Below, piece by piece: positions 5,863 to 63,198 of a stretch of DNA of 64,000 nucleotides. Made by a program: the position numbers and the translations under genes. Origin of the DNA: Squalus acanthias (lineage: Eukaryota); the NCBI GenBank assembly GCA_030390025.1, contig CM059431.1, positions 132,372,001 to 132,436,000 of the forward strand, in the 5' to 3' direction. Under the pieces are notes generated by a model that did no database searches, was not told where the DNA came from, and saw only the letters and a program-made list of their open reading frames with translations. Every line of letters starts with the position of its first letter. Positions within the stretch are counted from its first letter, which is position 1.

Positions 5863-6958
5863 CTGAAAGAAAAATCAGGTTATTAGTCACAGTATCACAC
5901 GTCTATGCAAAGTCTGACAAATCTATAGGCAGCAGGAATTTCCACTAATTCGAGGAGTGCTTAAATGAGCGATTTAAAATGGGCGAGTTTCCTCAGGAAT
6001 TAGTTTTCATCTCATTAATAAAGGGGGAGAAGAGGAAGAAGGGCTGCGCAAGACAATGGGTCCCACATTACAAAATTGCAGTGGCACAGTAGGTCTTAGT
6101 TTTGCAAATCAAAACCTTGAAAATTGGTTTCAAGCAGCATGCAGCTTTTCATTCCTATCATAAGAAATTTCCATAATGGCATTAATTGAATTCCTACAAT
6201 GCGCCTAACCAATAATAAAGTACTAGGGGTTTAAAGTGAGCTCTGAGTAGAAGATATTAATATTTTGCCAGTCTCGAAAAGCATTCTTGTGCAAATTTTA
6301 TTGAAAGAATCTGAGAATTAGTCTTTCTGAACAAAGCATTGTGCAGAAGTCTAGGGGCTAGCAATTTAGCTGGAGTTGCCAGAATTCTAATCTAAGTAAC
6401 CTATCCCTCACTCACTAATAATTCCTTTTACTTTCACCACTTCAACTTTAATCCTTTCCCTCAGCTGGTCATCTATACTGAAATGATTTCATATTCAAGA
6501 TTCATTGCAACATAACTGTTTTACTATATGATATTTATTCTTGTATATTCAGAAAAATCTTATCTTCGCGGAACACAATCGGAAACAGCCTTAAAACAGG
6601 CATTTCAGAACCACATTACTGACACTTTACCCCTTTGAGCACTGTGCTAGCATCAAAGGATTCAATATTAATATCATGTTTCTGGTTTTTGCAAATGATA
6701 CCAAGCACGTAAAGCCACATCAAATTCCACTGAACATTCAGAAATCAATTCAGGTACATCTGGTTCTCAGTTCTGTACATATTACTGTACAATGCATCCA
6801 TACCTCTTTCTGTAAAGATCTTCAGGGAAGATTTTACTTTTCACTATGCATTGATCAGGTATTAGAAGCTCTTTGTTGAAGCTGTGGTTTTAGGGGTCAT
6901 TATTTATAGACACCATTCATCAACTGTACCACCCCCATCTCCCCCCCACCATTCCCCA

Positions 6959-6980
6959 ACACACACACACACACACACAC
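6959..6980. repeat. (AC)11 microsatellite
   Basis: Read directly. Confidence 0.9.
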
Positions 6981-7850
6981 GAGGGTAAATTTTCAATGAT
7001 TAATACACATGTTCAACACCAAATGGTGGTAGTTACTGATTGGAGAATGGGAAAATGGGAGTGGAGATCCATCATGCCAAATCTCTTCCCATTTTACACA
7101 TCACATGCATTTCTGGTGGGATATTTGAGAGCTGCAAGAAGTTGCTGCCAGAAATATATTGAATATTTCAATATTTAAATTAAGTTCCAATTATGTTATT
7201 TTGACGTTCATGATATTTCCGAATGTCCCTGCGTGAATAACAGTGAGTGATCTAGCCATGTGAGTAAAATGGGTATCCAGGGTTGTTGACTTGTACATAA
7301 AGAGCTATCTAAAAGGTCCAGTAAGAAGATACCTTGAACAATTGTCAAGCCATTTCTGCACCATTTTCTTCTTTTTTCTGTTGTTACTTAGGTTTCTAGG
7401 AGCCTGTACTTTTTAGAAGAAGAATAAAACCAAGAGAGGAATGCCAAGCACCTGTTGGTACTCCCACAACACAATCTATAGCAGAGGTGCATGTACCTCC
7501 ATTTGTTAGAGGAACAGTGCCTGAAAAGGCTGTGATTTACAAGGGATGCTGTGAGATTTATGCCATATTATCCAAACAGGCCTTCAGCTAAATTCGTCCA
7601 CAGCCATGGTATTGTCAATTGTTGTTAACGTCACACAACCATCACATTTCATGCTTCAGCGTTATTATAGGCTGCCAATGTGGAATCAGCAACATAAGTT
7701 GGCTGCAGATGTGTACATCAAGTGACCAATGCGAGTGAGAAATTTTATCCCCTTCCCTGTGGACAATCGACTACAGCATGAAAGGGCTGTGTAATTTAAT
7801 AGTGAGAGGTCGCACAACACCAGGTTATAGTCCAACAGTTTTATTTGAAA

Positions 7851-7893
7851 TCACAAGCTTTCGGAGCTATCGATTTGCTCCTTCCTCAGGTGA
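7851..7893 (-). ncRNA. Mirror hammerhead motif, sense with respect to DCT transcription
   Basis: Exact reverse complement of 13549-13591. Confidence 0.8.
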
Positions 7894-8225
7894 AGTAAAT
7901 TAGATACAGAATCTCCAAAGCATATATAGGTGGAAAACAAAGCATGTGTACTTTACAATTGCAGACCAATAAATTAAATCATCCTGACTATCTGCCAAGG
8001 TGTGATAAAGTTAATTAAGTCAGCCAGGAAGGTACCACATCAAAGACATAGCAAGATACAACTGAGACAATGAGGTGTAGTCGCAGGGGTTCTAACGTGT
8101 CAAAAGCTGCCGTCTGTATGTAAAACGAAAAGCTTTAACATTTTTTTACTTTTTTACTGGGAAAATTTTTACTTTTTTACTGGGAATCACATCTGTGAAC
8201 AAGCTAACGACGACTCGAGTCCGGA

Positions 8226-10718
8226 TCACGTCATGTATCGTGACATAAACCCAAGATCCCGATTGAGACCGTCTTCATGAGTGCGGAACTTGGCTATCAG
8301 TTTCTGCTCGATGATTTTGCGTTGTCGTGTGTTTCTAAGGTTGCCTTGGAGAACGCTTACCCGCAGATCCGAGGCTGAATGTCCTTGACTGCTGAAGTGT
8401 TCCCCGACTGGGAGGTAACAATCCTGCCTGGCGATTGTTGCGCGGTGCTCGTTCATACGTTGTCTCAGTGTCTGCATGGTCTCGCCGATGTACCATGCCG
8501 CGGTGCATTCTTTCCTGCAACGTATGAGGTAGACAACGTTGGCCGAGTCACATGAGTATGTACCATGTACCTGGTGGGTAGTGTCCTCACGTGTGATGGT
8601 GGTATCTGTGTTGATGATCTGGCATGTCTTGCAGAGTTTGCCATGGCAGGGTTGTGTGGTGTCGTGGTCGCTGTTATCCTGAAAGCTGGGTAATTTGCTG
8701 CGAACGATGGTACTTCTGAGGTTAGGCGGCTGTTTGAAGGCAAGTAGTGGAGGCGTGGGGATGGCCTTAGCGAGGTGTTTGTCGTCATCGATGACATGTT
8801 GAAGGCTGCGAAGAACATGGCGTAGTTTCTCCGCTTCGGGGAAGTACTGGACGACGTAGGGTACCCTGTTGGTTGTGTCCCGTGTTTGCCTTCTGAGGAG
8901 GTCTATGTGATTTTTCGCTGTGGCCCGTCGGAACTGTCGATCGATGAGTCGAGCGTCATATCCCGTTCTTACGAGGGCGTTTTTCAGCGTCCGTAGGTGT
9001 CCATCGCGTTCCTCCTCGTCTGAGCAGATCCTGTGTATTCGCAGGGCTTGTCCATAGGGGATGGCTTCTTTAACATGGTTAGGGTGGAAGCTGGAGAAGT
9101 GGAGCATCGTGAGGTTGTCCGTGGGCTTGCGGTAGAGTGAAGTGCTGAGGTGTCCGTCTTTGATGGAGATTCGTGTGTCCAGGAATGAGACTGATTCTGA
9201 GGAGTAGTCCATGGTGAGTTTGATGGTGGGATGGAACATGTTTATGTTATCGTGTAGTCTTTTCAGTGATCCTTCGCCATGGGTCCAAAGGAAGAAAATG
9301 TCGTCGATGTATCTGGTATACAGCGTTGGCTGGAGGTCCTGTGCAGCGAAGAAGTCTTGCTCGAACTTGTGCATGAAGATGTTGGCGTATTGGGGTGCGA
9401 ATTTGGTCCCCATGGCTGTTCCGTGTGTTTGGGTAAAAAAATGGTTGTCGAAGGTGAAGACATTGTGGTCAAGGATGAAGCGGATGAGTTGTAGGATGGC
9501 GTCTGGAGATTGGCTGTTGTTGATGTTGAGTACTGAGGCTGTTGCAGCGATGCCGTCATCGTGGGGGATACTGGTGTAGAGTGCCGATACGTCCATCGTG
9601 GCAAGGAGTGTTCCTGGTTCAACTGGTCCGTGGGTGCTGAGTTTCTGTAAGAAGTCTGTAGTGTCGCGACAGAAGCTGGGGGTTCCCTGTACGATGGGTT
9701 TCAGAATGCCCTCGACGTATCCAGAGAGGTTCTCGCACAGGGTTCCATTGCCTGATACGATAGGACGTCCGGGTGTGTTGGCTTTGTGTATCTTTGGGAG
9801 GCAGTAGAAGTCTCCCACGCGGGGATTACGTGGGATGAGAGCGCGTAGGATGTTTTGAAGGTCTGGATCGAAGGTCTTGATCAGTCTATTGAGTTGGCGG
9901 GTGTGTTCTTTGGTCGGATCTGCGGGTAGCTGTCTGTAGTGTTCCTGGTTGTCCAGTTGTCGGTATGCTTCTTTACAATAGTCCGTTCTGTTCTGTATGA
10001 CGATGGCTCCTCCTTTGTCCGCTGGTTTGATGACAATGTTGCGGTTGGTCTTGAGAGCGTGGATGGCGTTGCGTTGTGCTCGGGTGACATTCTGGACTGT
10101 CTTGTGAGTGCGGCTGATGAATCTGGCGTTGATGCATCTCCTGACAGCTTGAGCATACATGTCAAGCTTGGGGCAGCGACCCTCCGGAGGGGTCCAGTTT
10201 GACTCTTTTTTCTTCGGTTGCTGCACTGCGAGTCCCTCTGTCTGCTGTTCTGGATCATTGATTGTCTCATTGGGTTTGTTGCTGACATCTTGGGATTTGT
10301 GGAAGTATTCCCGGAGCCTCATTCTCCTGATGAATTCCTCCGTGTCTGCCGCGAGGCCGATGGGGTCCATTTTGGTGGTTGGGCAGAACTTGAGCCCTAG
10401 GGCGAGAACTTCGATTTCGTCTGGTTGAAGGGTGTGGTCCGACAGGTTGACGATGGACTTCCCTGTGGTTGCAGCCGTGGTACCGGGGGAGGCTTGGTTG
10501 CTGCTGGTGGTGATGCCGAGTTTCTCAAGCTTCCTGTTCTTGATGCGCATGTAGGCAGCGTAGTTCCGTTGCCTCGTCTGTTTGGTGGTGTCTCGTAACT
10601 GGTCTGCTGTGTCCTGAGCACAGGCTGAGAGCATGGACTCTATCTTGGTTTCGAGGTTGTGGCGTTTGCTGTAGAGCTGGTGTACGAGATGGTTGAGGAG
10701 TGTGCGAGAGGTACGACG
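8226..10718 (-). CDS. Mirror copy of the Penelope RT + GIY-YIG ORF
   Basis: Same protein with three amino-acid differences in the arms (NRTD/NRMD, KNHI/KNRI, PEAE/PGAE). Confidence 0.92.
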   Translation of the reverse strand, partial: RRTSRTLLNHLVHQLYSKRHNLETKIESMLSACAQDTADQLRDTTKQTRQRNYAAYMRIKNRKLEKLGITTSSNQASPGTTAATTGKSIVNLSDHTLQPDEIEVLALGLKFCPTTKMDPIGLAADTEEFIRRMRLREYFHKSQDVSNKPNETINDPEQQTEGLAVQQPKKKESNWTPPEGRCPKLDMYAQAVRRCINARFISRTHKTVQNVTRAQRNAIHALKTNRNIVIKPADKGGAIVIQNRTDYCKEAYRQLDNQEHYRQLPADPTKEHTRQLNRLIKTFDPDLQNILRALIPRNPRVGDFYCLPKIHKANTPGRPIVSGNGTLCENLSGYVEGILKPIVQGTPSFCRDTTDFLQKLSTHGPVEPGTLLATMDVSALYTSIPHDDGIAATASVLNINNSQSPDAILQLIRFILDHNVFTFDNHFFTQTHGTAMGTKFAPQYANIFMHKFEQDFFAAQDLQPTLYTRYIDDIFFLWTHGEGSLKRLHDNINMFHPTIKLTMDYSSESVSFLDTRISIKDGHLSTSLYRKPTDNLTMLHFSSFHPNHVKEAIPYGQALRIHRICSDEEERDGHLRTLKNALVRTGYDARLIDRQFRRATAKNHIDLLRRQTRDTTNRVPYVVQYFPEAEKLRHVLRSLQHVIDDDKHLAKAIPTPPLLAFKQPPNLRSTIVRSKLPSFQDNSDHDTTQPCHGKLCKTCQIINTDTTITREDTTHQVHGTYSCDSANVVYLIRCRKECTAAWYIGETMQTLRQRMNEHRATIARQDCYLPVGEHFSSQGHSASDLRVSVLQGNLRNTRQRKIIEQKLIAKFRTHEDGLNRDLGFMSRYMT

Positions 10719-10723
10719 GCAGA

Positions 10724-13216
10724 CGTCGTACCTCTCGCACACTCCTCAACCATCTCGTACACCAGCTCTACAGCAAACGCCACAACCTCGAAACCAAGAT
10801 AGAGTCCATGCTCTCAGCCTGTGCTCAGGACACAGCAGACCAGTTACGAGACACCACCAAACAGACGAGGCAACGGAACTACGCTGCCTACATGCGCATC
10901 AAGAACAGGAAGCTTGAGAAACTCGGCATCACCACCAGCAGCAACCAAGCCTCCCCCGGTACCACGGCTGCAACCACAGGGAAGTCCATCGTCAACCTGT
11001 CGGACCACACCCTTCAACCAGACGAAATCGAAGTTCTCGCCCTAGGGCTCAAGTTCTGCCCAACCACCAAAATGGACCCCATCGGCCTCGCGGCAGACAC
11101 GGAGGAATTCATCAGGAGAATGAGGCTCCGGGAATACTTCCACAAATCCCAAGATGTCAGCAACAAACCCAATGAGACAATCAATGATCCAGAACAGCAG
11201 ACAGAGGGACTCGCAGTGCAGCAACCGAAGAAAAAAGAGTCAAACTGGACCCCTCCGGAGGGTCGCTGCCCCAAGCTTGACATGTATGCTCAAGCTGTCA
11301 GGAGATGCATCAACGCCAGATTCATCAGCCGCACTCACAAGACAGTCCAGAATGTCACCCGAGCACAACGCAACGCCATCCACGCTCTCAAGACCAACCG
11401 CAACATTGTCATCAAACCAGCGGACAAAGGAGGAGCCATCGTCATACAGAACAGAATGGACTATTGTAAAGAAGCATACCGACAACTGGACAACCAGGAA
11501 CACTACAGACAGCTACCCGCAGATCCGACCAAAGAACACACCCGCCAACTCAATAGACTGATCAAGACCTTCGATCCAGACCTTCAAAACATCCTACGCG
11601 CTCTCATCCCACGTAATCCCCGCGTGGGAGACTTCTACTGCCTCCCAAAGATACACAAAGCCAACACACCCGGACGTCCTATCGTATCAGGCAATGGAAC
11701 CCTGTGCGAGAACCTCTCTGGATACGTCGAGGGCATTCTGAAACCCATCGTACAGGGAACCCCCAGCTTCTGTCGCGACACTACAGACTTCTTACAGAAA
11801 CTCAGCACCCACGGACCAGTTGAACCAGGAACACTCCTTGCCACGATGGACGTATCGGCACTCTACACCAGTATCCCCCACGATGACGGCATCGCTGCAA
11901 CAGCCTCAGTACTCAACATCAACAACAGCCAATCTCCAGACGCCATCCTACAACTCATCCGCTTCATCCTTGACCACAATGTCTTCACCTTCGACAACCA
12001 TTTTTTTACCCAAACACACGGAACAGCCATGGGGACCAAATTCGCACCCCAATACGCCAACATCTTCATGCACAAGTTCGAGCAAGACTTCTTCGCTGCA
12101 CAGGACCTCCAGCCAACGCTGTATACCAGATACATCGACGACATTTTCTTCCTTTGGACCCATGGCGAAGGATCACTGAAAAGACTACACGATAACATAA
12201 ACATGTTCCATCCCACCATCAAACTCACCATGGACTACTCCTCAGAATCAGTCTCATTCCTGGACACACGAATCTCCATCAAAGACGGACACCTCAGCAC
12301 TTCACTCTACCGCAAGCCCACGGACAACCTCACGATGCTCCACTTCTCCAGCTTCCACCCTAACCATGTTAAAGAAGCCATCCCCTATGGACAAGCCCTG
12401 CGAATACACAGGATCTGCTCAGACGAGGAGGAACGCGATGGACACCTACGGACGCTGAAAAACGCCCTCGTAAGAACGGGATATGACGCTCGACTCATCG
12501 ATCGACAGTTCCGACGGGCCACAGCGAAAAATCGCATAGACCTCCTCAGAAGGCAAACACGGGACACAACCAACAGGGTACCCTACGTCGTCCAGTACTT
12601 CCCCGGAGCGGAGAAACTACGCCATGTTCTTCGCAGCCTTCAACATGTCATCGATGACGACAAACACCTCGCTAAGGCCATCCCCACGCCTCCACTACTT
12701 GCCTTCAAACAGCCGCCTAACCTCAGAAGTACCATCGTTCGCAGCAAATTACCCAGCTTTCAGGATAACAGCGACCACGACACCACACAACCCTGCCATG
12801 GCAAACTCTGCAAGACATGCCAGATCATCAACACAGATACCACCATCACACGTGAGGACACTACCCACCAGGTACATGGTACATACTCATGTGACTCGGC
12901 CAACGTTGTCTACCTCATACGTTGCAGGAAAGAATGCACCGCGGCATGGTACATCGGCGAGACCATGCAGACACTGAGACAACGTATGAACGAGCACCGC
13001 GCAACAATCGCCAGGCAGGATTGTTACCTCCCAGTCGGGGAACACTTCAGCAGTCAAGGACATTCAGCCTCGGATCTGCGGGTAAGCGTTCTCCAAGGCA
13101 ACCTTAGAAACACACGACAACGCAAAATCATCGAGCAGAAACTGATAGCCAAGTTCCGCACTCATGAAGACGGTCTCAATCGGGATCTTGGGTTTATGTC
13201 ACGATACATGACGTGA
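10724..13216 (+). CDS. Penelope RT + GIY-YIG endonuclease ORF, 5'-truncated, uninterrupted
   Basis: Motifs IKPADKGG, FYCLPKIHK, GRPIVS, DVSALYTSIP, GTAMG, RYIDD; Cys linker PCHGKLCKTC; VVYLIRC..C...YIGET...R..EH endonuclease. Confidence 0.92.
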   Translation, partial: RRTSRTLLNHLVHQLYSKRHNLETKIESMLSACAQDTADQLRDTTKQTRQRNYAAYMRIKNRKLEKLGITTSSNQASPGTTAATTGKSIVNLSDHTLQPDEIEVLALGLKFCPTTKMDPIGLAADTEEFIRRMRLREYFHKSQDVSNKPNETINDPEQQTEGLAVQQPKKKESNWTPPEGRCPKLDMYAQAVRRCINARFISRTHKTVQNVTRAQRNAIHALKTNRNIVIKPADKGGAIVIQNRMDYCKEAYRQLDNQEHYRQLPADPTKEHTRQLNRLIKTFDPDLQNILRALIPRNPRVGDFYCLPKIHKANTPGRPIVSGNGTLCENLSGYVEGILKPIVQGTPSFCRDTTDFLQKLSTHGPVEPGTLLATMDVSALYTSIPHDDGIAATASVLNINNSQSPDAILQLIRFILDHNVFTFDNHFFTQTHGTAMGTKFAPQYANIFMHKFEQDFFAAQDLQPTLYTRYIDDIFFLWTHGEGSLKRLHDNINMFHPTIKLTMDYSSESVSFLDTRISIKDGHLSTSLYRKPTDNLTMLHFSSFHPNHVKEAIPYGQALRIHRICSDEEERDGHLRTLKNALVRTGYDARLIDRQFRRATAKNRIDLLRRQTRDTTNRVPYVVQYFPGAEKLRHVLRSLQHVIDDDKHLAKAIPTPPLLAFKQPPNLRSTIVRSKLPSFQDNSDHDTTQPCHGKLCKTCQIINTDTTITREDTTHQVHGTYSCDSANVVYLIRCRKECTAAWYIGETMQTLRQRMNEHRATIARQDCYLPVGEHFSSQGHSASDLRVSVLQGNLRNTRQRKIIEQKLIAKFRTHEDGLNRDLGFMSRYMT

Positions 13217-13548
13217 TCCGGACTCGAGTCGTCGTTAGCTTGTTCACAGATGTGATTCCCAGTAAAAAAGTAAAAATTTTCCCAGTAAAAAAGTAAAAAA
13301 ATGTTAAAGCTTTTCGTTTTACATACAGACGGCAGCTTTTGACATGTTAGAACCCCTGCGACTACACCTCATTGTCTCAGTTGTATCTTGCTATGTCTTT
13401 GATGTGGTACCTTCCTGGCTGACTTAATTAACTTTATCACACCTTGGCAGATAGTCAGGATGATTTAATTTATTGGTCTGCAATTGTAAAGTACACATGC
13501 TTTGTTTTCCACCTATATATGCTTTGGAGATTCTGTATCTAATTTACT

Positions 13549-13591
13549 TCACCTGAGGAAGGAGCAAATCGATAGCTCCGAAAGCTTGTGA
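13549..13591 (+). ncRNA. Minimal type I hammerhead ribozyme motif in the Penelope 3' region
   Basis: TCAC-CTGAGGA-A-GGAGC[AAATCGATA]GCTCC-GAAA-GCTT-GTGA: stem I, CUGANGA core, stem II, GAAA, palindromic AAGCTT in place of stem III. Confidence 0.8.
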
Positions 13592-14217
13592 TTTCAAATA
13601 AAACTGTTGGACTATAACCTGGTGTTGTGCGACCTCTCAATTTTGTCCACCCCAGTCAACACCGGCATCTCCGCATCATAATTTAATAGTAGCAGAATTC
13701 CCAAAGTACTGAGTGTTATAGTTTGCATTCATTTCAGAGAAGCAAGTACAAATCCCACCATGGCAGTTGGGGAATTTAAATTCAGTTAATTAAATAAATC
13801 TGGAATAAAAAGCTAGTATCAGTAATGGTGACCGTGAAACTATTGGATTGTCGTAAAAATCCATCTGGTTCACTACTGTCCTTTAGGGAAGGAAATCAGC
13901 CTACTCTCAATCATCAGCAAAGTGATGGAAGGTGTCGTCAACAGTGCTATCAAGCAGCACTTACTCACCAATAACCTGCTGACTGTAAGTGAATAAAAGA
14001 ATAAGGGTGAGAAGGAAGAACACCAGAAATCTGCCACAAACCCTGAGCTGGAGGCGGGATGTGTGACAAATTTCTGCTACTTTCACAGTTTCTAATTCTT
14101 CATTTCCTTCCTACATTTCCATACCCCCATGACTTCCTTCCCAAGCTTTTGAGGGCATCCCTTATATACAGGGTTAGATATTGCAAGGCAAAGTTTCCTG
14201 CCCTTGCAAATGTTCTC

Positions 14218-14345
14218 TTTCTCTACATTACAACAGTGACTACACTTAAAAAAAAGTACTTAATTGGCTGTAAAGCGCTTTGGGACGTCCGGTGGTCGTG
14301 AAAGGCGCTATATAAATGCAAGTCTTTCTCTCTTTCTTTCTTTCT
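14218..14345 (+). repeat. L2-related SINE/LINE 3' tail
   Basis: ATTGGCTGTAAAGCGCTTTGGGACGTCC...GCGCTATATAAATGCAAGTC + (TTTC)n; related copy at 26535-26620 on minus. Confidence 0.6.
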
Positions 14346-14709
14346 CTGTTATTGTGCACTGTCTTCTACAAGCAGAGCAGAAGAAATGAGAAATTCCAAC
14401 TGTCAAGATGACATGCAGCAAAATCCAACTGTCCTCATGCACCTATAGTGGGTGTGATGTGATGCATATTAGTATTTAACTACAATAGAGGGAAGGCTTG
14501 TTTTGCGCTGATTGCATGCAAGGATGTGAGTGAAAGAACACTTCCAGGTAAAGGTTAGGGGTGATAAGGGTTACCCAGCTGCATCATAGATACTCATGGT
14601 TAGATTGAAAACTCTCTTGCGTTGATTGAGGAATTTTCCCTTTGGATTGGAAAATTGCCAAAGTCACTCCATTATGTAAGAAGGGTGGGAGTGGTAAACC
14701 ATGAAATCA

Positions 14710-16380
14710 TAGACCTGTTAGTCGATGTTATTTATGTGGGCTTCCAGAAGATATTCAATAAGGTTCCACACAGGAGACTGTTAGCAAAACTGAAAGCACA
14801 TAGAATTGGAGACAACCTTTTGACATGGGTAGTAGACAGAAAGTAGAGATAATGGCCGGAATTTTCAGAGGTAAGAACGGGTGGGTTGGAGGCGTGGGGG
14901 GGAAGTGAAAGTTGAAAAAATGTGAACCCCGACCCCAACCCGCCTCCTTTCACCTTTCACTCGGGGGGTGGGGGGGGGTGTGCGGGCTGCCAACTCGCTG
15001 CCAAGAGGAGGGTTGGCAATTTACATATTATAATGAGGCCTGAAACCTCTACTTTAACCTGCTTTGCAGGTTTTACTGCAGACGGCTGCGAATCCTGGGG
15101 CTCAGGATTCCCAGTGGCTGCAACGAGGTGGCCTCAGCCTCGGAGAGCAATCCTTGTGGGGCGGGAGGAGCAGGAGTGCTTCCACCCGGCCCCCCCAAGC
15201 TCCCCCATTATCAGCCTGGCACCCATCCCCCCACCCCGGCCGGGGTCGGGGTTCGGACCCCCCCCCCGCCGCACCCGGGATCGGATCCCCCTGGGCTTGG
15301 ACAACCCCCACCACCGCCCCACCATCCTGGGCCCAGCACTTACTTGTTGCTGCGGCCTCATCCTCCGAGTTCCTGTTAATCAGGCTGACTTCCAGGCAGG
15401 TAACCCACCCCTGAAGTCGCACGCACGCTGTGGAGTTAAAACGGCCTTCCAGGTTTCCCACCATCTCCCGGGTCCCCCCCGCACCGTGCCAGTGGGACCC
15501 GGCAAAATCCAGCCTAATGGGTATGTACTCAGATGTGACTAGTGTGCCCCTCAGGATCACTACTGGGGCCTCAGCTTTTCACGATATTTATGAATAGCTT
15601 AAATGAAGGAATAGAGAGCCGTACATGCAAATTTGCTGATGACACTAAGTTAGTTAGCACAGTAAGTCATGTAGTTGGGAGCAGGAAGTTGCAAAAGGAC
15701 ATTGATAGATTAAATGAGTGGGCAAAACTGTGGCAGATGGAGTTCAATGTGGGGAAGTGTGAGGTCATCCACTTTGGACCTGCGATATTTCAAAGTACTG
15801 TCTAAATACGAGGAATTGTGGAGGAGAAGAGTGCTCTGGTTAGACAGCGTCGAGAGTACTGCATTCGATTCTGGGCTTTGTACCTCAGGAAGGATATATT
15901 GGCCTTGCAGCACAGATTCATCAGAATGCTACTGGAGCTTAGAGGGTTAAATTATGAGGACAGGTTGTGTAGACTAGGCTTGTATTCCCTTGAATATAGA
16001 AGATTGTGTTTAATTGAGGTGTTTAAGATGATTAAAGGATATGATAGGGTAGATAGAGAGAAACTATTTCCTTTGGTGGGCGAATCCAGAACAAGGGGGG
16101 CATAATCTTAAAATTGGAGCTAGGCCATTCAGGGTTGACGTTAGGAAGCACTTCTTCACACAAATATTGGTATAAATCTGGAACGCTCTCCTCCAAAAAG
16201 CTGTTGAGGCTAGGTCAATTGAAAATTTATAAACTGAGATTGATGGACTTTTGTTAGATAAGTGATATTAAGGGATATGGAATCAAGGCTGGTAAATGGA
16301 GTTAAGATACAGATCAGCCATGATCTAATTGAATGGTGGAGTAGGCTCAAGGGGCTGAATGGCCTACTCCTGTTCCTATG
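14710..16380 (+). mobile_element. CR1 3' fragment with nested MITE
   Basis: FQKIFNKVPHRRL, LLGPQLF, KFADDTK, RLGLYSLE; CR1-type 3' UTR ending GGCCTACTCCTGTTCCTATG. Confidence 0.85.
14854..15514. mobile_element. GC-rich MITE in CR1
   Basis: Ends GGCCGGAATTT / AAATCCAGCC, flanked by duplicated (T)AAT. Confidence 0.72.
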
Positions 16381-50935: not shown

Positions 50936-53900
50936 TGCTGCCTTGAAGATGAGTTCATTGAGTGTATTAGGGATGGGTTTCTTGAGCAGTATGTAACTGA
51001 ACCGACCAGGGGGCAAGCAACATTAGATCTGGTCCTGTGTAAGGAGACAGGATTAATTAAAAATGTCCTAGTAAAGGATAGATTAAAGGGTAAGACGATA
51101 CATGATCAGTGGTGTACATTTAAGGAGTTCCACTACCCACAGGGCCATGACCGATCCGAACCTAGACTCATGTCCAAATTCCTGCCCGCTCCCCATAACC
51201 CTTAATGCCCTTTACTTCTAGGAAACTGTCTATTTCTGTTTTAAATTTATTTAATGATGTAGCTTCTACAGCTTTTTGTGGCAGCATATTCCATGGACCT
51301 ACCACCCTCTGAGTGAAGTAGTTCCTCCTCATCTCAGTTTTGAAAGAGCAGCCCCTTATTCTAAGACTATGTCCCCTAGTTCTAGTCTCACCCGTCATCG
51401 GGAACATCCTCCCCGCATCCACCCGATCCAACCCCTTCACAATCTTACATGTTTCAATAAGATCGCCTCTCATTCTTCTGAACTCCAATGAGTAGAGTCC
51501 CAATCTACACAACCTCTCCTCATATGACCACCCCCTCATCCCCGGGATTAACCGAGTGAACCTTTTTTGCACTGCCTCGAGAGCAAGGATGTCTTTCCTT
51601 AAGTAAGGACACCAAAACTGTATGCAGTATTCCAGGTGCGGTCTCACCAATACCTTGTACAACTGAAGCAATACCTCCCTATTTTTGTATTCTATCCCCC
51701 TAGCAATGAAAGCCAACATTCCATTTGCCTTCTTAATCACTTGCTGCACCTGCATACTAACCTTTTGAGTTTCGTGCACCAGGACCCCCAGATCCCTTTG
51801 CACTTCAGTACTCTCCAGTTTCTTTCCATTAAGATAATAAATTGCTCTGGGATTTTTCCTGCCAAAGTGCATCACCTCACACTTTCCAGTGTTGTATTCC
51901 ATCTGCCAAATCTCTGCCCACTTACTTAGCCTGTCTATGTCCCCTTGCAGGTTTTTTATGTCCTCCTCACTCACTACTTTCCCTCCCATCTTAGTATCAT
52001 CTGCAAATTTTGATATGTTACACTTGGTCCCTTCCTCCAAATCGTTAATATAGATTGTAAAGAGTTGGGGACCCAGCACTGACCCCTGTGGAACACCACT
52101 AGTTACTGATTGCCAGTCTGAGAATGAACCATTTATCCCAACTCTTTGCTTTCTGTTAGATAGCCAATCCTCTATCCATGCCAGAATATTACCCCCAATC
52201 CTGTGATTTTTTACCTTAAGCAATAATCTTTTGTGTGGCACCTTGTCAAATGCCTTTTGGAAGTCTAAATACACTACATCCACTGGTTCCCCTTTATCCA
52301 CTCTATATGTTACTTCCTCAAAGAACTCCAGCAAATTTGTCAAACATGACTTCCCCTTCGTAAAACCATGCTGACTTTGTCCTATTAAATTATGATTATC
52401 CAAATGTCCTGTTACTGTTTCCTTAATAATGGACTCCAAAATTTTACCTACCACAGATGTTAGGCTAACCGGTCTATAGTTACCAGCCTTCTGTCTACTG
52501 CCCTTTTTAAATAAGGGTGTTACATTAGCAGTTTTCCAGTCTGCCGGGACCTTAGCGGAATCCAGGGAGTTTTGAAAAATTATCACCAATGCATCTACAA
52601 TCCCTACCGCCACTTCCTTCAAGACTCTAGGATGTAAGCCATCAGGTCCAGGTGATTTATCCGCCTTGAGTCCCATTATTTTACCGAGTACCACTTCCTT
52701 AGTGATTTTGATCATGTTTAGCTCCTCTTCCCCTATAGCCCCCTGTTTGTCCAGTGTTGGGATATTCTTAGTGTCCTCTACTGTAAAGACTGATACAAAA
52801 TATTCATTCAGTGTTTTTGCCATCTCCATATTTCCCACCATTAATTTCCCGGTCTCATCCTCTAAGGGACCAACATTTACTTTAGCCACCCTTTTTCTTT
52901 TTATATAACTATAAAAACTCTTACTATCTGTTTTTATATTTTTTGCTAATTTACTTTCATAATCTATCTTCCCTTTCTTAATCAATCTTTTTGTTATTTT
53001 TTGCTGCCTTTTAAAGTTTTCCCAATCCTCTGTCCTCCCACTAGATTTCGCTACCTTATATGCCCTTGTTTTTAGTCGAATACTATCCTTAATTTCTTTA
53101 CTTAGCCACGGATGACTGTCCTTTTTTTTACACCCTTTTCTTTTCAGTGGAATATATTTTTTTTGGAAGTTGTAAAATAACTCCTTGAATGTACACCACT
53201 GATCATGTGTCATCTTACCCTTTAATCTATTTTCCCAATCCACTCCACTCAATTCCGCTCGCATACCTTCATAGTCTCCTTTATTCAAGCTTAGCACGCT
53301 TGTTTGAGATCCAACCTTCTCACCCTCTAATTGAATATGGAATTCAACCATGTTATGGTCACTCATTCCAAGGGGATCCTTTACTAGGACATTTTTAATT
53401 AATCCTGTCTCGTTACACAGGACCAGATCTAAGGTTGCTTGCCCCCTGGTCGGTTCAGTTACATACTGCTCAAGAAACCCATCCCTAATACACTCAATGA
53501 ACTCATCCTCAAGGCAGCCCTGCCCCATTTGAATTGTCCAATTAATATGATAGTTAAAATCCCCCATAATTATAGATGTTCCCTTATTACATGCCTCAAC
53601 TATTTCCTGATTGATACTCCGTCCAACAGATTTTACAACTTCCAAAAAATATATATTCCACTGAGAAGAAAAGGGTGTAAAAGAAAAGTCAGTCATCCGT
53701 GGCTAAGTAAAGAAATTAAGGATAATATTCAACTAAAAACAAGGGCTTATAAGGTAGCCAAATCTAGTGGGAGGATAGAGGATTGGGAAAACTTTAAAAG
53801 ACAGCAAAAAATAACAAAAAGATTGATTAAGAAAGGGAAGATAGATTATGAAAGTAAATTAGCAAAAAATATAAAAACAGATAGTAAGAGTTTTTATAGT

Positions 53901-55725
53901 TATATAAAAAGAAAAAGGGTGGCTAAAGTAAATGTTGGTCCCTTGGAGGATGAGACCGGGAAATTAATGGTGGGAAATATGGAGATGGCAAAAACACTGA
54001 ATGAATATTTTGTATCAGTCTTTACAGTAGAGGACACTAAGAATATCCCAACACTGGACAAACAGGGGGCTATAGGGGAAGAGGAGCTAAACATGATCAA
54101 AATCACTAAGGAAGTGGTACTCGGTAAAATAATGGGACTCAAGGCGGATAAATCACCTGGACCTGATGGCTTACATCCTAGGGTCTTGAGGGAAGTGGCG
54201 GTAGGGATTGTGGATGCATTGGTAATCATTTTCCAAAACTCCCTGGACTCAGCAAAGATCCCGGCAGACTGGAAAACTGCTAATTTAACACCCTTATTTA
54301 AAAAGGGCAGTAGACAGAAGGCTGGAAACTATAGACCGGTTAGCCTAACATCTGTGGTAGGTAAAATTTTGGAGTCCATTATTAAGGAGACAGTAACTGG
54401 ACATTTGGATAATCATAATTTAATAGGACAAAGTCAGCATGGTTTTATGAAGGGGAAGTCATGTTTGACAAATTTGCTGGAGTTCTTTGAGGAAGTAACA
54501 CACAGGGTGGATAAAGGGGAACCAGTGGATGTGGTGTATTTAGACTTCCAAAAGGCATTTGACAAGGTGCCACACAAAAGATTATTGCTTAAGAAAAAAA
54601 ATCACAGGATTGGGGGTAATATTCTGGCATGGATAGAGGATTGGCTATCTAACAGAAAGCAAAGAGTTGGGATAAATGGTTCATTCTCAGACTGGCAATC
54701 AGTAACTAGTGGTGTTCCACAGGGGTCAGTGCTGGGTCCCCAACTCTTTACAATCTATATTAACGATTTGGAGGAGGGGACCGAGTGTAACATATCAAAG
54801 TTTGTAGATGATACTAAGATGGGAGGGAAAGTAGTGAGTGAGGAGGACATAAAAAATCTGCAAGGGGACATAGACAGGCTAAGTAAGTGGGCAGAGATTT
54901 GGCAGATGGAATACAATACTGGAAAGTGTGAGGTTATGCACTTTGGCAGGAAAAATAGTACAGCAAGTTATTATCTAAATGGCAAGAAACTGGAAAGTAC
55001 TGAAGTACAAAGGGATCTGGGGGTCCTGGTGCACGAAACTCAAAAGGTTAGTATGCAGGTGCAGCAAGTGATTAAGAAGGCCAATGGAATGTTGGCTTTC
55101 ATTGCTAAGGGGATAGAATATAAAAATAGGGAGGTATTGCTTCAGTTGTACAGGGTATTGGTGAGACCGCACCTGGAATACTGCATACAGTTTTGGTGTC
55201 CATACTTAAGAAAAGACATACTTGCTCTCGAGGCAGTACAAAGAAGGTTCACTCGGTTAATCCCGGGGATGAGGGGATGGACATATGAGGAGAGGTTGGG
55301 TAGATTGGGACTCTACTCATTGGAGTTCAGAAGAATGAGAGGCGATCTTATTGAAACATATAAGATTGTGAAGGGGTTGGATCGGGTGGATGCGGGTAGG
55401 ATGTTCCCGATGATGGGTGAAACTAGAACTAGGGGGCATAATCTTAGAATAAGGGGCTGCTTTTTCAAAACTGAGATGAGAAGGAACTACTTCACTCAGA
55501 GGGTGGTAGGTCCATGGAATATGCTGCCCCAAAAAGCTGTAGAAGCTAAATCATTACATAAATTTAAAACAGAAATAGACAGTTTCCTAGAAGTAAAGGG
55601 AATTAAGGGTTACGGGGAGCGGGCAGGAATTTGGACATGAGTCTAGGTTCGGATCGGTCATGGCCCTGTGGGTAGCGTAGCGGGCCCAGGGGCCGTGTAG
55701 CCTGATTCTGCTCCTATTTCGTGTG
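50936..55725 (+). mobile_element. CR1 LINE of the same subfamily, split into 50936-51129 and 53630-55725 by the inverted copy
   Basis: ...DQWCTFKE at 51129 resumes as FYNFQK at 53630; ORF continues to the stop at 55640, then 3' UTR. Left piece has an internal deletion near 51078. Confidence 0.88.
51130..53629 (-). mobile_element. CR1 LINE ORF2 segment (APE C-part + RT), inverted, lacking its 3' terminus
   Basis: Long stop-free frame: IMGDFN, KSPGPDG, NYRPVSLTS, YLDFQKAFD, GVPQGSVLGP, KFADD; 3' UTR stops at GGGTAG. Confidence 0.92.
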
Positions 55726-56635: not shown

Positions 56636-56807
56636 ATATAAGGTAGGGAATTCAAGCATATTGATGCAATGAAAATAAAGGAACAGTGATATATGTCTAA
56701 GTCAGGATGCTGTGTGAGTTAGAGTGATGTGTTCCCAGGACATCTCCACTCCTGCCCTTTTTAGTGGTAAAGGTCGCAGGTCAGGGAGCTGCTATCAAAG
56801 TAACAAC

Positions 56808-57388
56808 TGTTGGTGAAAAATTAATTCACTCGAGTCTGTCGTAAAGCAAAAGATCACAGTTTATTATTCAGAGCGCTCCGGGAGAATTCAGAGCGCTCTG
56901 GGAGAATGGTCACAGCCTGCGGTCTCATGACCCGCTTCTCAACTTAACAATGGTCACACAAGCTTCTTTATACACTTCCAAAAGCCAGAAAATACAAACC
57001 TCAGCACAGTTAGGGTTAGGGTTACATCATGAGTGACCCTTAGGTTGTCTAAAAACAACTTGATCAGAATTTTACACTGTTAGCGAAACTTATCCTTCAC
57101 TTCTGCTTTTTGTCAACCATCTGCGCTGCGAGGTTTCATTCTTAGTCCTTTCGAGGCTAGTTTATCATAAAAAAACAATGATTCACATTTTTGTTCTGCA
57201 GTGTCTGCATTATCTATACTGCAGCCTAAGCAAGTTGGTCTTTATCTAATTATACCCGTCTCCATCGGCTTGTAGCCTTCGGGAGGTACTTTGACCTTTA
57301 CTATAGTCCTTTAAGCAGTTCAACTAATCTTAAACATTACAACTGATTTGCCCTTACATTATTACAATTAATTTTTTTAACTCTTACA
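56808..57388 (-). repeat. ERV 3' LTR (581 bp)
   Basis: Preceded on the minus strand by purine tract AATAGGAGGGAC (57389-57400); contains minus-strand TATAAA (~56966-56971) and AATAAA (56860-56865). Confidence 0.95.
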
Positions 57389-58742: not shown

Positions 58743-60225
58743 TTAAATTGGTGAAGGGTCATAGGCTTTTAGCTGTGTCCAGTGCTTCCATCGTCCCATG
58801 CCCTTTATATTAATGCAAGCACACGTATCCCCACTAATTAAAATCTGATATGGTCCCGACCATTTTGGGGCGAACCCGGGTTTTCCTGGTAGATTCTTAA
58901 CCATTACCTTGGTCCCCGCTGGAGCGATATATGGAAATGCGGTCAATTCCAAATCTTTATCTCTTTCTTCCTGTCTTTCCCTAGTTTGCTGTTTCATTTC
59001 TTTTAATTGGTTACTCATTTCCAGGACATATCTGCAGAGTTTATCCTTTAGGGGACCCACATCTTCTCCTCCAGTCATTATACCATGGGGGTCCTCCCCG
59101 TCATTAGCTCATATGGTGATAGGCCCGTGGTTCGATTTGGGGTGGCTCTTAGTTTCATTAATACTGTGGGTAGCACATCCACCCACCTTTGCTGTTTTTC
59201 CCCCAATGCTTTGGCTACCGCTGTTTTTAAGGTGAGATTCATTCTTTCTACCATTCCAGAACTTTGAGGATGGTATGGGATGTGGAATTTCTGTTTTATT
59301 GACCCCCTTCCTGTATGGAGCTTCCATGATGTAGTTCTAAAAGTATCTGTCTGATGCACACGGGGGCTATCACCTTTCCATTCTTTCGCCATATTGCCTC
59401 TTCATCTGGTCTGCCCCCTACTCGGTACCATTCCTGTCTTTCGTCTTCTGGGGCATCTGCATGCAATTTACTGATATCTATTTCCTCTACCTGTGCACTA
59501 GCTACATTCCCTTCAACCATTTCTTGTTCAAGAGCTCGCTGTGCTGCTCGATCAGCGGCCTGGTTCCCTTTTTGCTCCTGATTCTGTATCTTCTGGTGCG
59601 CTTTGATTTTTATTACTGCAGCTTGTGCTGGGGCTTTCGTGGCTTCCAAGAGGGCCTCTATTCGCTGCTGGTGTTTTATGTGATCCCCTCCGGTTGTCAC
59701 AAACCCCCTTCTCCCCCAAGCTGTCATATAATCGTGTACCACTCCGAATGCATATCTACTATCCGTGTAGATGTTTACTGTCTTTCCCCTTGCTAATTCT
59801 AGTGCCTTTGTTAACGCTACTATCTCGGCTACTTGTGCCGACAAGCTTCCGTCTAACCTTCCCGACATTTCTGTTTCCAACTGATCATTTACTACTGCCC
59901 ATTCTGTCCGGGGAGATCCCTCTACATATTTCCTTGACCCGTCTACGTACAGTGTCATCTGAGCTTCCTCCAGCGGTTCGTCCTGCACGAGGGTTTCGTC
60001 TAGTTCCCCCTCCGTCTCTGAGCACTGATGGGGGCTTCCCTCACTCAGGATGCCTTCCGCGGGGTTTTCCCCTGTATCCCGAATTACCTTAACTGTCTGG
60101 TCTATCGGCAGTAGGACTGCTTCCCATCGAGCTCGCCGCATATTGGAAACTGACCGTAGTTTCCCGGTATTTAACATCTCTACCAGTGTATGCCGAGTGT
60201 GTAAGATGATATCCCCTGTCATCAC
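58743..60225 (-). pseudogene. pol: ERV pol remnant: connection/RNase H + partial integrase, frameshifted and deleted
   Basis: LYVDGS, AQVAEIVAL, IYTDSRYAFGVVHD, IKAH (RNase H); HIPYHPQSSGMVERMN, TTGLSPYELMTGR, PKWSGPY, WKHWTQLK (integrase core/C-term). Confidence 0.9.
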
Positions 60226-60822
60226 AGTTGGTTTGCTACTCTAACTCTGCATCTCTGTCCTACATTATTCTTAGCGCATATTATACAACGGTGACAATAC
60301 TTCGCCACCTCGCGACCCATCTTTGGCCACCACCAGTACTGTGTCAGTAGGTGCAACATGTTACTTCTGCCGGTATGTGTTACACCATGGTACAGCCCCA
60401 TCAGTTGTTGTCTACAACCTTCCGGTGCCACCACCTGGTTTCGTGGGCCCCATCTCCAAATTCTATCTCGTAACTGTACGCCAGCTTGTTTCCATCTCTC
60501 CTTTTCCTCTTTACTAGTATTTTCTTGTATCTCCACTATATTCACTTCCTGAACCCCAGTGGCTGTCATGACCATATTTATCTCGTGTTCAAACGCGGCT
60601 TCTGGTTTAAGTTCCTCCGCGGCTAGTTTTGCGGCCAAATCTGCATACCGATTTTCTATGGGAGCCTGATCCTGGGGCTCCTATGAGTCCATGTCTATCT
60701 TCGTGTGGGCCTCTATTTTAATTACCGCGGTTTCTAAAGGTGCCTGTGTCGCCTTAACTAACCTTTCTATTAGTTTTCCATGTTTTACTACCTTTCCAGT
60801 GGAGGTCATATAACTCCTTCTG
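60222..60822 (-). pseudogene. Second, divergent RNase H C-half + integrase HHCC zinc domain
   Basis: RRSYMTSTGKVVKHGKLIERLVKATQAPLETAVIKIEAH...YADLAAKLAA...YHGVTHTG...WWWPKM...CHRCIICAKNN. Confidence 0.8.
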
Positions 60823-62598: not shown

Positions 62599-62616
62599 AT
62601 CCTGCTGACTACGCCA
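62599..62616 (-). promoter_or_regulatory. Primer binding site complementary to tRNA-Ser
   Basis: TGGCGTAGTCAGCAGGAT, 2 nt after the 5' LTR; 17/18 complementary to the recalled tRNA-Ser 3' end ATCCTGCCGACTACGCCA. Confidence 0.85.
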
Positions 62617-62618
62617 AT

Positions 62619-63198
62619 TGTTGGTGAAAAATTAATTCACTCGAGTCTGTCGTAAAACAAAAGATCACAGTTTATTATTCAGAGCGCTCCGGGAGAATTC
62701 AGAGCGCTCTGGGAGAACGGTCACAGCCTGCGGTCTCATGACCCGCTTCTCAACTTAACAATGGTCACACAAGCTTCTTTATACACTTCCAAAAGCCAGA
62801 AAATACAAACCTCAGCACAGTTAGGGTTAGGGTTACATCATGAGTGACCCTTAGGTTGTCTAAAAACAACTTGATCAGAATTTTACACTGTTAGCGAAAC
62901 TTATCCTTTACTTCTGCTTTTTGTCAACCATCTGCGCTGTGAGGTTTCATTCTTAGTCCTTTCGAGGCTAGTTTATTATAAAAAACAATGATTCACATTT
63001 TTATTCTGCAGTATCTGCATTATCTATACTGCAGCCTAAGCAAGTTGGTCTTTATCTAATTATACCCGTCTCCATCGGCTTGTAGCCTTCAGGAGGTGCT
63101 TTGACCTTTACTATAGTCCTTTAAGCAGTTCAACTAATCTTAAACATTACAACTGATTTGCCCCTACATTATTACAATTAATTTTTTTAACTCTTACA
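62619..63198 (-). repeat. ERV 5' LTR (580 bp)
   Basis: Direct repeat of 56808-57388 with about 11 differences by eye (~98%); followed on the minus strand by the PBS. Confidence 0.95.

Follow-up and report, generated by a model that had tools for sequence, protein, structure and literature searches.

Insertions of canonical Penelope-like elements (PLEs) that bear an endonuclease (EN) frequently have an adjacent inverted, 5'-truncated copy at their 5' end and a tail on one side only (PMC8557442; PMC8969392). Head to head is the usual orientation of PLE copies, and in rotifer elements palindromes at the head-to-head junction are frequent and were read as the product of self-priming on an antisense template (PMC3846280). 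Two PLE clades have been reported in vertebrates, Neptune and Poseidon (bioRxiv 2026.07.22.740005). Here, we describe an insertion that we assign to a Neptune-type PLE in Squalus acanthias (GenBank assembly GCA_030390025.1, contig CM059431.1, positions 132,372,001 to 132,436,000 of the forward strand), where two inverted copies form a 5.8-kb palindrome. This 64-kb stretch is called the window, and positions are counted from its first letter.

For PAc –a Poseidon element of Anolis carolinensis– both strands of the target were cut and extended in vitro, with A/T-rich sites preferred; two start sites of the reverse transcriptase (RT) bound the tail, and a dimer was predicted through an N-terminal helix (PMC11167929). 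That paper leaves the inverted junction and the second strand aside and describes the later steps as not validated (PMC11167929). The copy described here bears on how a PLE insertion is completed and on the origin of the head-to-head arrangement, and it is young enough for every joint to be read.

The unit is real in the assembly, its origin in one event is supported, and it fits the described PLE architecture; only its arm length is extreme. A previous sequence-only reading of the window had called the inversion extreme, and this stands for the arm length but not for the architecture, since in the literature PLE units are normally head to head and have palindromic junctions (PMC3846280, PMC8557442). 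What is new here is an argument from loop ownership: the 5-nt centre of the palindrome belongs to the tail-less arm. The route that we prefer, at an even chance, is one retrotransposition event of a Neptune-type PLE, in which both nicked strands primed reverse transcription and the unit was closed by snap-back.

Anatomy of the palindrome and identity of the element

Walking outward from the centre without gaps, we counted 2916 paired positions with 4 mismatches (9985/11457, 8908/12534, 8836/12606, and 8097/13345) before the pairing collapsed. The arms (7803-10718 and 10724-13639, 2916 nt each) enclose a GCAGA centre and are 99.863% identical by BLAST across 2916 nt, in a 64-kb window whose N count is 0. 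Arm length, centre, and number of differences were thus confirmed, within the assembly, as previously described.

The 12-mer TAATTTAATAGT occurs twice within the window, at the outer ends of the unit (Table 1), and is A/T in 11 of its 12 nt. From composition, the chance of a 12-nt duplication is 1.7e-7 to 1.4e-6, and a shared word of at least 12 nt, with +/-3 nt of slack, turned up in 8 of 20,000 random position pairs. This bears out the single target-site duplication (TSD) that the sequence-only reading had placed around the whole unit, and one TSD around the unit supports its claim of one insertion event. Each copy of the duplication overlaps the element by 1 nt: the T at 7803 doubles as the first base of the arm, and the T at 13679 as the last tail base of the family. 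The 39-nt tail (13640-13678), present on the right arm only and ahead of the duplication, is therefore better given as 39-40 nt, and its identification with the known 30-40-nt PLE extension is supported. The flanks of the palindrome are unrelated to each other. Within the window, there was no further family copy and no paralogue of the target site; a repeat at 13745-13901, which begins 55 nt past the duplication, supplies no empty site.

Two frames, 10697-13216 (+) and 8226-10745 (-), are stop-free over 839 codons and directed away from the centre; thus, the copies lie head to head. The left copy measures 2921 nt with the centre included, and the right one 2916 nt. A direct pseudo-long terminal repeat (pseudo-LTR) is absent at the locus, the second copy being the inverted one.

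Each frame matches RVT_1 with E about 3e-8 (2.7e-8 in the right one), DKG and YIDD motifs are present in the RT, and the C-terminal GIY-YIG (PF01541) has an E of 1.2e-4 and 22.8 bits, barely over the cut-off of 22.6. The Cys and His columns (CCHH) of GIY-YIG are invariant among 30 homologues, and the protein in the window has the same residues. A CX2-5CxxC linker between the RT and the C-terminal endonuclease marks the Neptune and Nematis clades (PMC8557442). Matches to the RT, the linker, and GIY-YIG support the Penelope-like identity proposed before, and the element is assigned to the Neptune type by its linker, a trait common to Nematis. The same Pfam set is shared by 1365 homologues; among the best 120 of these, the closest named relatives come from Heptranchias perlo (92%, in a cluster of 54), Scyliorhinus torazame (85%), and Mustelus asterias (82%). 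Their proteins belong to the same RT-EN family, in agreement with a shark or other elasmobranch as host, and are filed as uncharacterized, without genomic context.

Both open reading frames (ORFs) had been described as open, and they are free of stops, but not intact. Compared to P0003 –an 881-aa relative with 62% identity– the first residue of either arm corresponds to residue 63, about 62 N-terminal codons are missing from both frames, and the first Met lies 28 codons into the arm. A full-length autonomous PLE would have a complete ORF with its start and an upstream pseudo-LTR promoter; here, the ORF is incomplete and there is no upstream repeat. Because the N-terminus is missing, both copies are 5'-truncated and predicted to be non-autonomous although open, that is, dead on arrival.

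At the 3' end, we propose a putative minimal type-I hammerhead at 13549-13591, where a core, an extra nucleotide, a 5-bp stem II, GAAA, and a palindromic 15.2-16.2 can be read by eye. These traits agree with those in PMC4209133, and stem II folds. An Rfam search gave 1 chance match and did not report a hammerhead, and the exact 3'-end motif had 0 matches among metagenome contigs.

Table 1. Features of the palindromic unit, in window positions
Feature	Position	Strand	Remark
Left TSD copy, 12 nt, final T common with the arm	7792..7803	+	
Left tail-less 5'-truncated copy, 2916-nt arm plus 5-nt loop	7803..10723	-	Loop assigned by contig loose ends
Mirror of the putative minimal hammerhead motif	7851..7893	-	Mirrors 13549-13591, no arm difference there; read by eye
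Left RT-EN frame, open, without N-terminus, replacements R to H and G to E	8226..10723	-	
5-nt centre, templated element sequence, codons L-C before RRTS	10719..10723	-	
Right tail-bearing 5'-truncated copy, 2916-nt arm	10724..13639	+	
Right RT-EN frame, 830 codons, open, without N-terminus, replacement T to M	10724..13216	+	
Reverse-transcriptase core match, RVT_1, with YIDD	11816..12196	+	E 2.7e-8
CX4CxxC linker between RT and endonuclease, Neptune/Nematis mark	12794..12820	+	
GIY-YIG endonuclease match	12905..13009	+	E 1.2e-4, 22.8 bits, cut-off 22.6
Putative minimal type-I hammerhead motif at the 3' end	13549..13591	+	By eye; stem II folds
Tail, 39 nt plus T common with the duplication, right arm only	13640..13679	+	
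Right TSD copy	13679..13690	+	

Ownership of the centre and route of insertion

Contigs from 4 of 24 listed runs (X1, X5, X7, and X20) were aligned to 10680-15200, which holds the centre, right arm, tail, and right flank. The counts that follow are those among the rows listed, which cover 32 of the 211,124 pieces, 15 of the 278 joints, and 24 of the 3597 loose ends. In 3 of the 4 runs, contigs follow the left arm through the centre and then diverge, behind 10723 in X7 (1 contig) and X20 (6 contigs) and behind 10721 in X1 (1 contig). When the loose-end letters were read by hand on the coding strand, the frame ran on into the N-terminal motif of the homologues, with L-C before the first R of the arm. 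Since family contigs run through GCAGA, the centre is element sequence and not foreign; its five bases are the last ones templated in the left, tail-less copy. Thus, the 5-nt spacer of the sequence-only reading is present, but it continues the left arm.

The next base of the family differs from the window on both sides of 10723/10724, and the simplest parse is a blunt junction that lacks both microhomology and added bases. With the family's next bases GTC and CGTC in the window, a second parse is a 3-bp snap-back plus one extra C. The GTC register occurs at 39 of 2874 arm positions (1.4%), and ends able to snap back with at least 3 bp make up 250 of 2880 (8.7%).

Other family copies end at 13679 with clean joints (6 contigs in X1, 7 in X5, and 1 in X20), and a further 2 contigs each in X1 and X5 leave at 13679 to a nearby place. 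Others end at 13639 (3 contigs in X1 and 4 in X5) and at 13633 (4 in X5 and 2 in X20), both marked 'between: not known'. The outer ends of the palindrome, 13639 at the start of the left arm and 13679 at the end of the tail, are evidently the two ends of the family, and they would match two RT start sites about 40 nt apart. Two of the 15 listed joints are unequal-arm inversions, 121 and 837 nt apart. As a separate observation, the family ends at 13679, 13639, and 13633 all join one site of a common repeat resembling a short interspersed nuclear element (window 14223) in 3 of the 4 runs; this could be a preferred target, and it hints that either end type can occupy the same side.

Given a sense RNA template, the top strand is the one that runs antisense, loop, sense, and it joins the target at the tail-less start. 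A fold-back from the right nick only would give the opposite loop orientation; thus, single-primer fold-back of the tail-bearing complementary DNA (cDNA) alone was rejected. Priming from the left nick only leaves no antisense template for the tail, so a second primed cDNA is needed. The sequence-only reading had offered fold-back or double priming: double priming holds up, while plain fold-back of one first-strand cDNA misfits both the loop ownership and the tail. The 1-nt target overlap at both ends fits target priming on both sides. We consider it probable that both nicks primed reverse transcription at this locus, and slightly more so provided that the structure is real.

In the route that we prefer, the GIY-YIG nuclease would act on an A/T-rich site and nick its two strands at points about 12 nt from each other, and both 3' ends would prime reverse transcription on the sense RNA, with 1 nt of pairing each. 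The left, top-strand end would prime at the upstream start site (13639) and carry no tail, and the right, bottom-strand end would prime at the downstream one (13679), with the tail. The left cDNA would extend for about 2.92 kb, halt 62 codons short of the ORF start, turn back at its 3' end with a 5-nt loop, and be copied on itself. The new sense strand would then pair with the right cDNA and acquire the tail, and repair would seal the unit. Snap-back of the tail-less cDNA is our preferred closing step, although we would give it an even chance; it would explain the 5-nt loop without coincidence and fit the frequent junction palindromes of rotifers (PMC3846280).

A dimeric protein would suit this route. 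Residues 1-215 of P0003, modelled as two copies and without its alignment, scored 0.54, and the best of 3 controls scored 0.01; the runs agreed in at least 90% of contacts, with a predicted local distance difference test (pLDDT) of at least 66 and the interface at 42-76. In microbes, 21 of 30 solved pairs but 0 of 23 single chains attained the mark used for calling a dimer; in eukaryotes, 17 of 29 pairs (7 of 16 in animals) and 0 of 30 single chains did so. The model supports, but does not show, an N-terminal homodimer resembling that predicted for PAc. More than half of the modelled interface is lost through the truncation.

Several points weigh against the preferred route. A single locus was examined, and the junction has no exact microhomology: a 3-bp snap-back yields one C fewer, so an extra base has to be assumed. 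The GTC pairing was spotted after the fact, has a 3.9% expectation for any of three registers, and is taken as a hint. The mark 'between: not known' is carried by the joints at 13639, and the two listed unequal-arm inversions are unexplained by snap-back alone. The in vitro data come from the Poseidon clade and end before second-strand synthesis (PMC11167929). Finally, the dimer model is that of a 62%-identical relative, and, of the 7 eukaryotic pairs for which no older relative had been solved, only 1 reached the dimer mark.

Twin priming is possible but rather unlikely as the full account of the unit. Two long cDNAs of about 2.9 kb would start from both nicks, stop 5 nt apart, and be joined 3' to 3' by a template jump or end joining, either on one RNA copied by two RT subunits, with the tail-less one ahead, or on two RNAs. 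A blunt junction with 0 microhomology and 0 added bases –the simplest parse– is what this would leave, the loop ownership is that of the best model if the tail-less RT leads, and both the unequal-arm inversions (2 of 15 listed joints) and the P0003 dimer model agree with it. However, two cDNAs of about 3 kb are unlikely to stop independently within 5 nt of each other if they were not coupled, and the trailing RT would have to displace 2.9 kb of cDNA. The contig depth of X7 is 569 at 10724 vs. 526 and 528 adjacent, so there is no drop marking 10724 as a common RNA end. We judge it improbable that the unit arose in two steps, with an ordinary insertion (a long tail-less copy and a short tail-bearing arm) followed later by a break-induced fold-back and host DNA synthesis. 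Its loop ownership is identical to that of the best model, and in yeast repair mutants, palindromic duplication can be driven by inverted repeats as short as 5-9 bp (PMC7999016), but a second rare event is required, and 0 of the 4 differences fall in the outer 294 nt of the arms, which would be the older pair.

Less probable still is self-priming on a folded-back antisense RNA, where sense DNA would be primed, the hairpin integrated, and one tail trimmed by the nuclease. It was proposed in print for head-to-head palindromes (PMC3846280), the tail was attributed to nuclease resolution (PMC8557442), and the loop ownership is compatible; against it, later in vitro work places the tail between two RT start sites on sense RNA (PMC11167929), and the 1-nt overlaps at both ends fit target priming on both sides. 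The least probable explanation is an assembly or library artefact, either a fold-back chimera or an assembler that homogenised or joined the arms. Artificial palindromes are known in long reads (PMC6218980), the family is high-copy, and among the contig rows listed for 10680-15200 none crossed the centre, the right junction, or an empty site, the left junction lying outside that stretch. Nevertheless, a fold-back read would mirror the flank too, whereas the flanks here differ; a direct 12-nt duplication bounds the unit, the asymmetry of the tail coincides with the two ends known for the family, and the differences between the arms are of CpG type, two of them on each arm.

Differences between the arms and age of the unit

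All 4 arm differences are G:C to A:T transitions, and 3 of them lie at CpG sites, which make up 10.2% of arm sites (p = 0.004); the CpG-type transitions noticed by the sequence-only reading were thus confirmed. In the 7 of 15 aligned homologues that were compared, 11457 is T in 5 and M in 0, 12534 is R in 7, and 12606 is G in 5 and E in 0. Hence, the right arm changed once and the left arm twice. Position 13345 falls in the untranslated end and is given to the right arm by CpG logic only. All three coding differences (3/3) are replacements, at residues where the homologues side with the opposite arm. Unlike these, the differences of a CR1 pair in the window comprise 41 synonymous and 29 replacement changes, which argues that the two arms derive from one source. 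Two separate insertions were rejected, given one TSD and 3 of 3 coding differences being replacements. At positions where both arms differ from most family contigs (e.g., 11086), RT error and source variant are inseparable, as contigs drop rare variants.

With the mutation rate of the epaulette shark, 7e-10 per base per generation (95% interval 1.4-14.1e-10; PMC10587355), and leaving out the rate's own interval, the differences correspond to 9.8e5 generations for all sites (2.7e5-2.5e6) and to 2.7e5 generations for non-CpG sites (6.9e3-1.5e6). An age of 7e3 to 2.5e6 generations holds only if the differences postdate fixation of the structure in the chromosome. Against a reading of slow decay, all 4 differences are C-to-T on the top strand (G.T pairs in a top-strand hairpin; p = 0.125, not significant, n=4), and such same-strand changes could date from the integration itself, when a single-stranded intermediate may have been damaged. 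Conversion between the arms, or polishing, would bias the estimate in the opposite direction.

A long persistence of the palindrome seems plausible. Repeats become more recombinogenic with greater length, greater similarity, and closer spacing, and forks stall at inverted Alu pairs separated by 12 bp (PMC7999016). With its 5.8 kb, its 5-nt centre, and an arm identity of 99.86%, the palindrome belongs to a class expected to be unstable (PMC7999016). Nothing on long palindromes was found in the excerpts of PMC6431247, PMC12910113, and PMC8969392.

Of the words sampled from 6500-15000, a share of 0.83-0.85 is present in two samples of the same organism. The listed flank contigs of X5 are identical to the window, while those of X1 have a 6-nt gap relative to it; one of these samples may be the source of the assembly. 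X20 has an orthologous flank of about 96% and no cover over 13247-13548, and it was not used as evidence there. Contigs of X7, labelled another organism, are 99-100% identical to 10724-11301 at high depth. The 19 listed runs with labels other than the best-matching organism hold 0.20-0.42 of the words, which we did not take as evidence of horizontal transfer. The subfamily is young and present beyond one organism label, and close kinship or transfer are both possible.

Relatives, neighbours, and comparison with described systems

Among the best 80 of 589 distant-relative metagenome loci, none held a multi-kb palindrome, which is no test, since most contigs are shorter than 7 kb; an inverted repeat of at least 30 nt was present in 6 of the 80. 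One of these loci (L054, 12-268) has a 257-nt head-to-head palindrome of 87%, with its centre near the same N-terminal helix as that of the window; the position may be chance, as the loci were picked for long matches. Two others, L051 (1-8804) and L012, are long direct tandems with units of about 4 kb at 99%, the other known PLE arrangement.

Within the window, the CR1-type long interspersed nuclear elements at 51133-53178 and 53630-55675 form a head-to-head pair with 2046-nt arms of 96.4% identity. Its 451-nt centre has rearranged pieces, no convincing TSD was found, and its 41 synonymous vs. 29 replacement differences suggest two different source copies. Direct repeats of about 585 nt (56804-57388 and 62615-63198, 98-99%) have TG...CA ends and an apparent 4-nt duplication outside; together with an RNase H-like frame between them (59296-60240, labelled by eye), they look like a young LTR-bounded element.

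More broadly, we tentatively suggest, with more doubt than confidence, that a near-perfect palindrome is the default product of Neptune-type PLEs in sharks, made by a dimeric RT-endonuclease that primes both nicked strands at two RNA sites, closed via the 3' end of the tail-less cDNA, and then tolerated in the germ line for 1e4 to 1e6 generations. If true, the tail-less arm would always own the loop, and for the second-strand step that is still lacking in accounts of Penelope transposition there would be a rule that can be read from genomes; loop ownership turns the second-strand question into a count within a whole assembly. It would also provide a natural set of dated long palindromes for measuring decay in a vertebrate.

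In L1 twin priming, reportedly described by Ostertag and Kazazian in 2001, both nicked strands are said to prime and the inversion lies inside one TSD. The second primer is said to start deep within the RNA, and the inverted segment is said not to duplicate the rest. In contrast, the two starts of the shark element lie about 40 nt apart at the 3' end, which would give a duplication and a palindrome, unlike L1.

The likeness to PAc lies in an A/T-rich target, the probable cutting and extension of both strands, two proposed start sites that bound the tail, and a predicted N-terminal dimer. However, PAc is a member of the Poseidon clade, with start sites located 111-118 nt inside the ORF (PMC11167929), whereas the shark element has a Cys linker. 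With canonical PLEs and Pen2a_Av, the unit shares the head-to-head inverted copy, the palindromic junction, the tail at one end, and the short TSD, and the putative motif at its 3' end would correspond to the hammerhead of their terminal repeat (PMC8557442, PMC3846280). In the examples of these papers, the inverted part measures about 180-220 bp and the palindrome 18-38 bp, next to a direct part that is longer (PMC3846280, PMC8557442). In the shark unit, the inverted copy takes up the entire 2.9-kb insert; a direct pseudo-LTR is absent, and the centre measures 5 nt.

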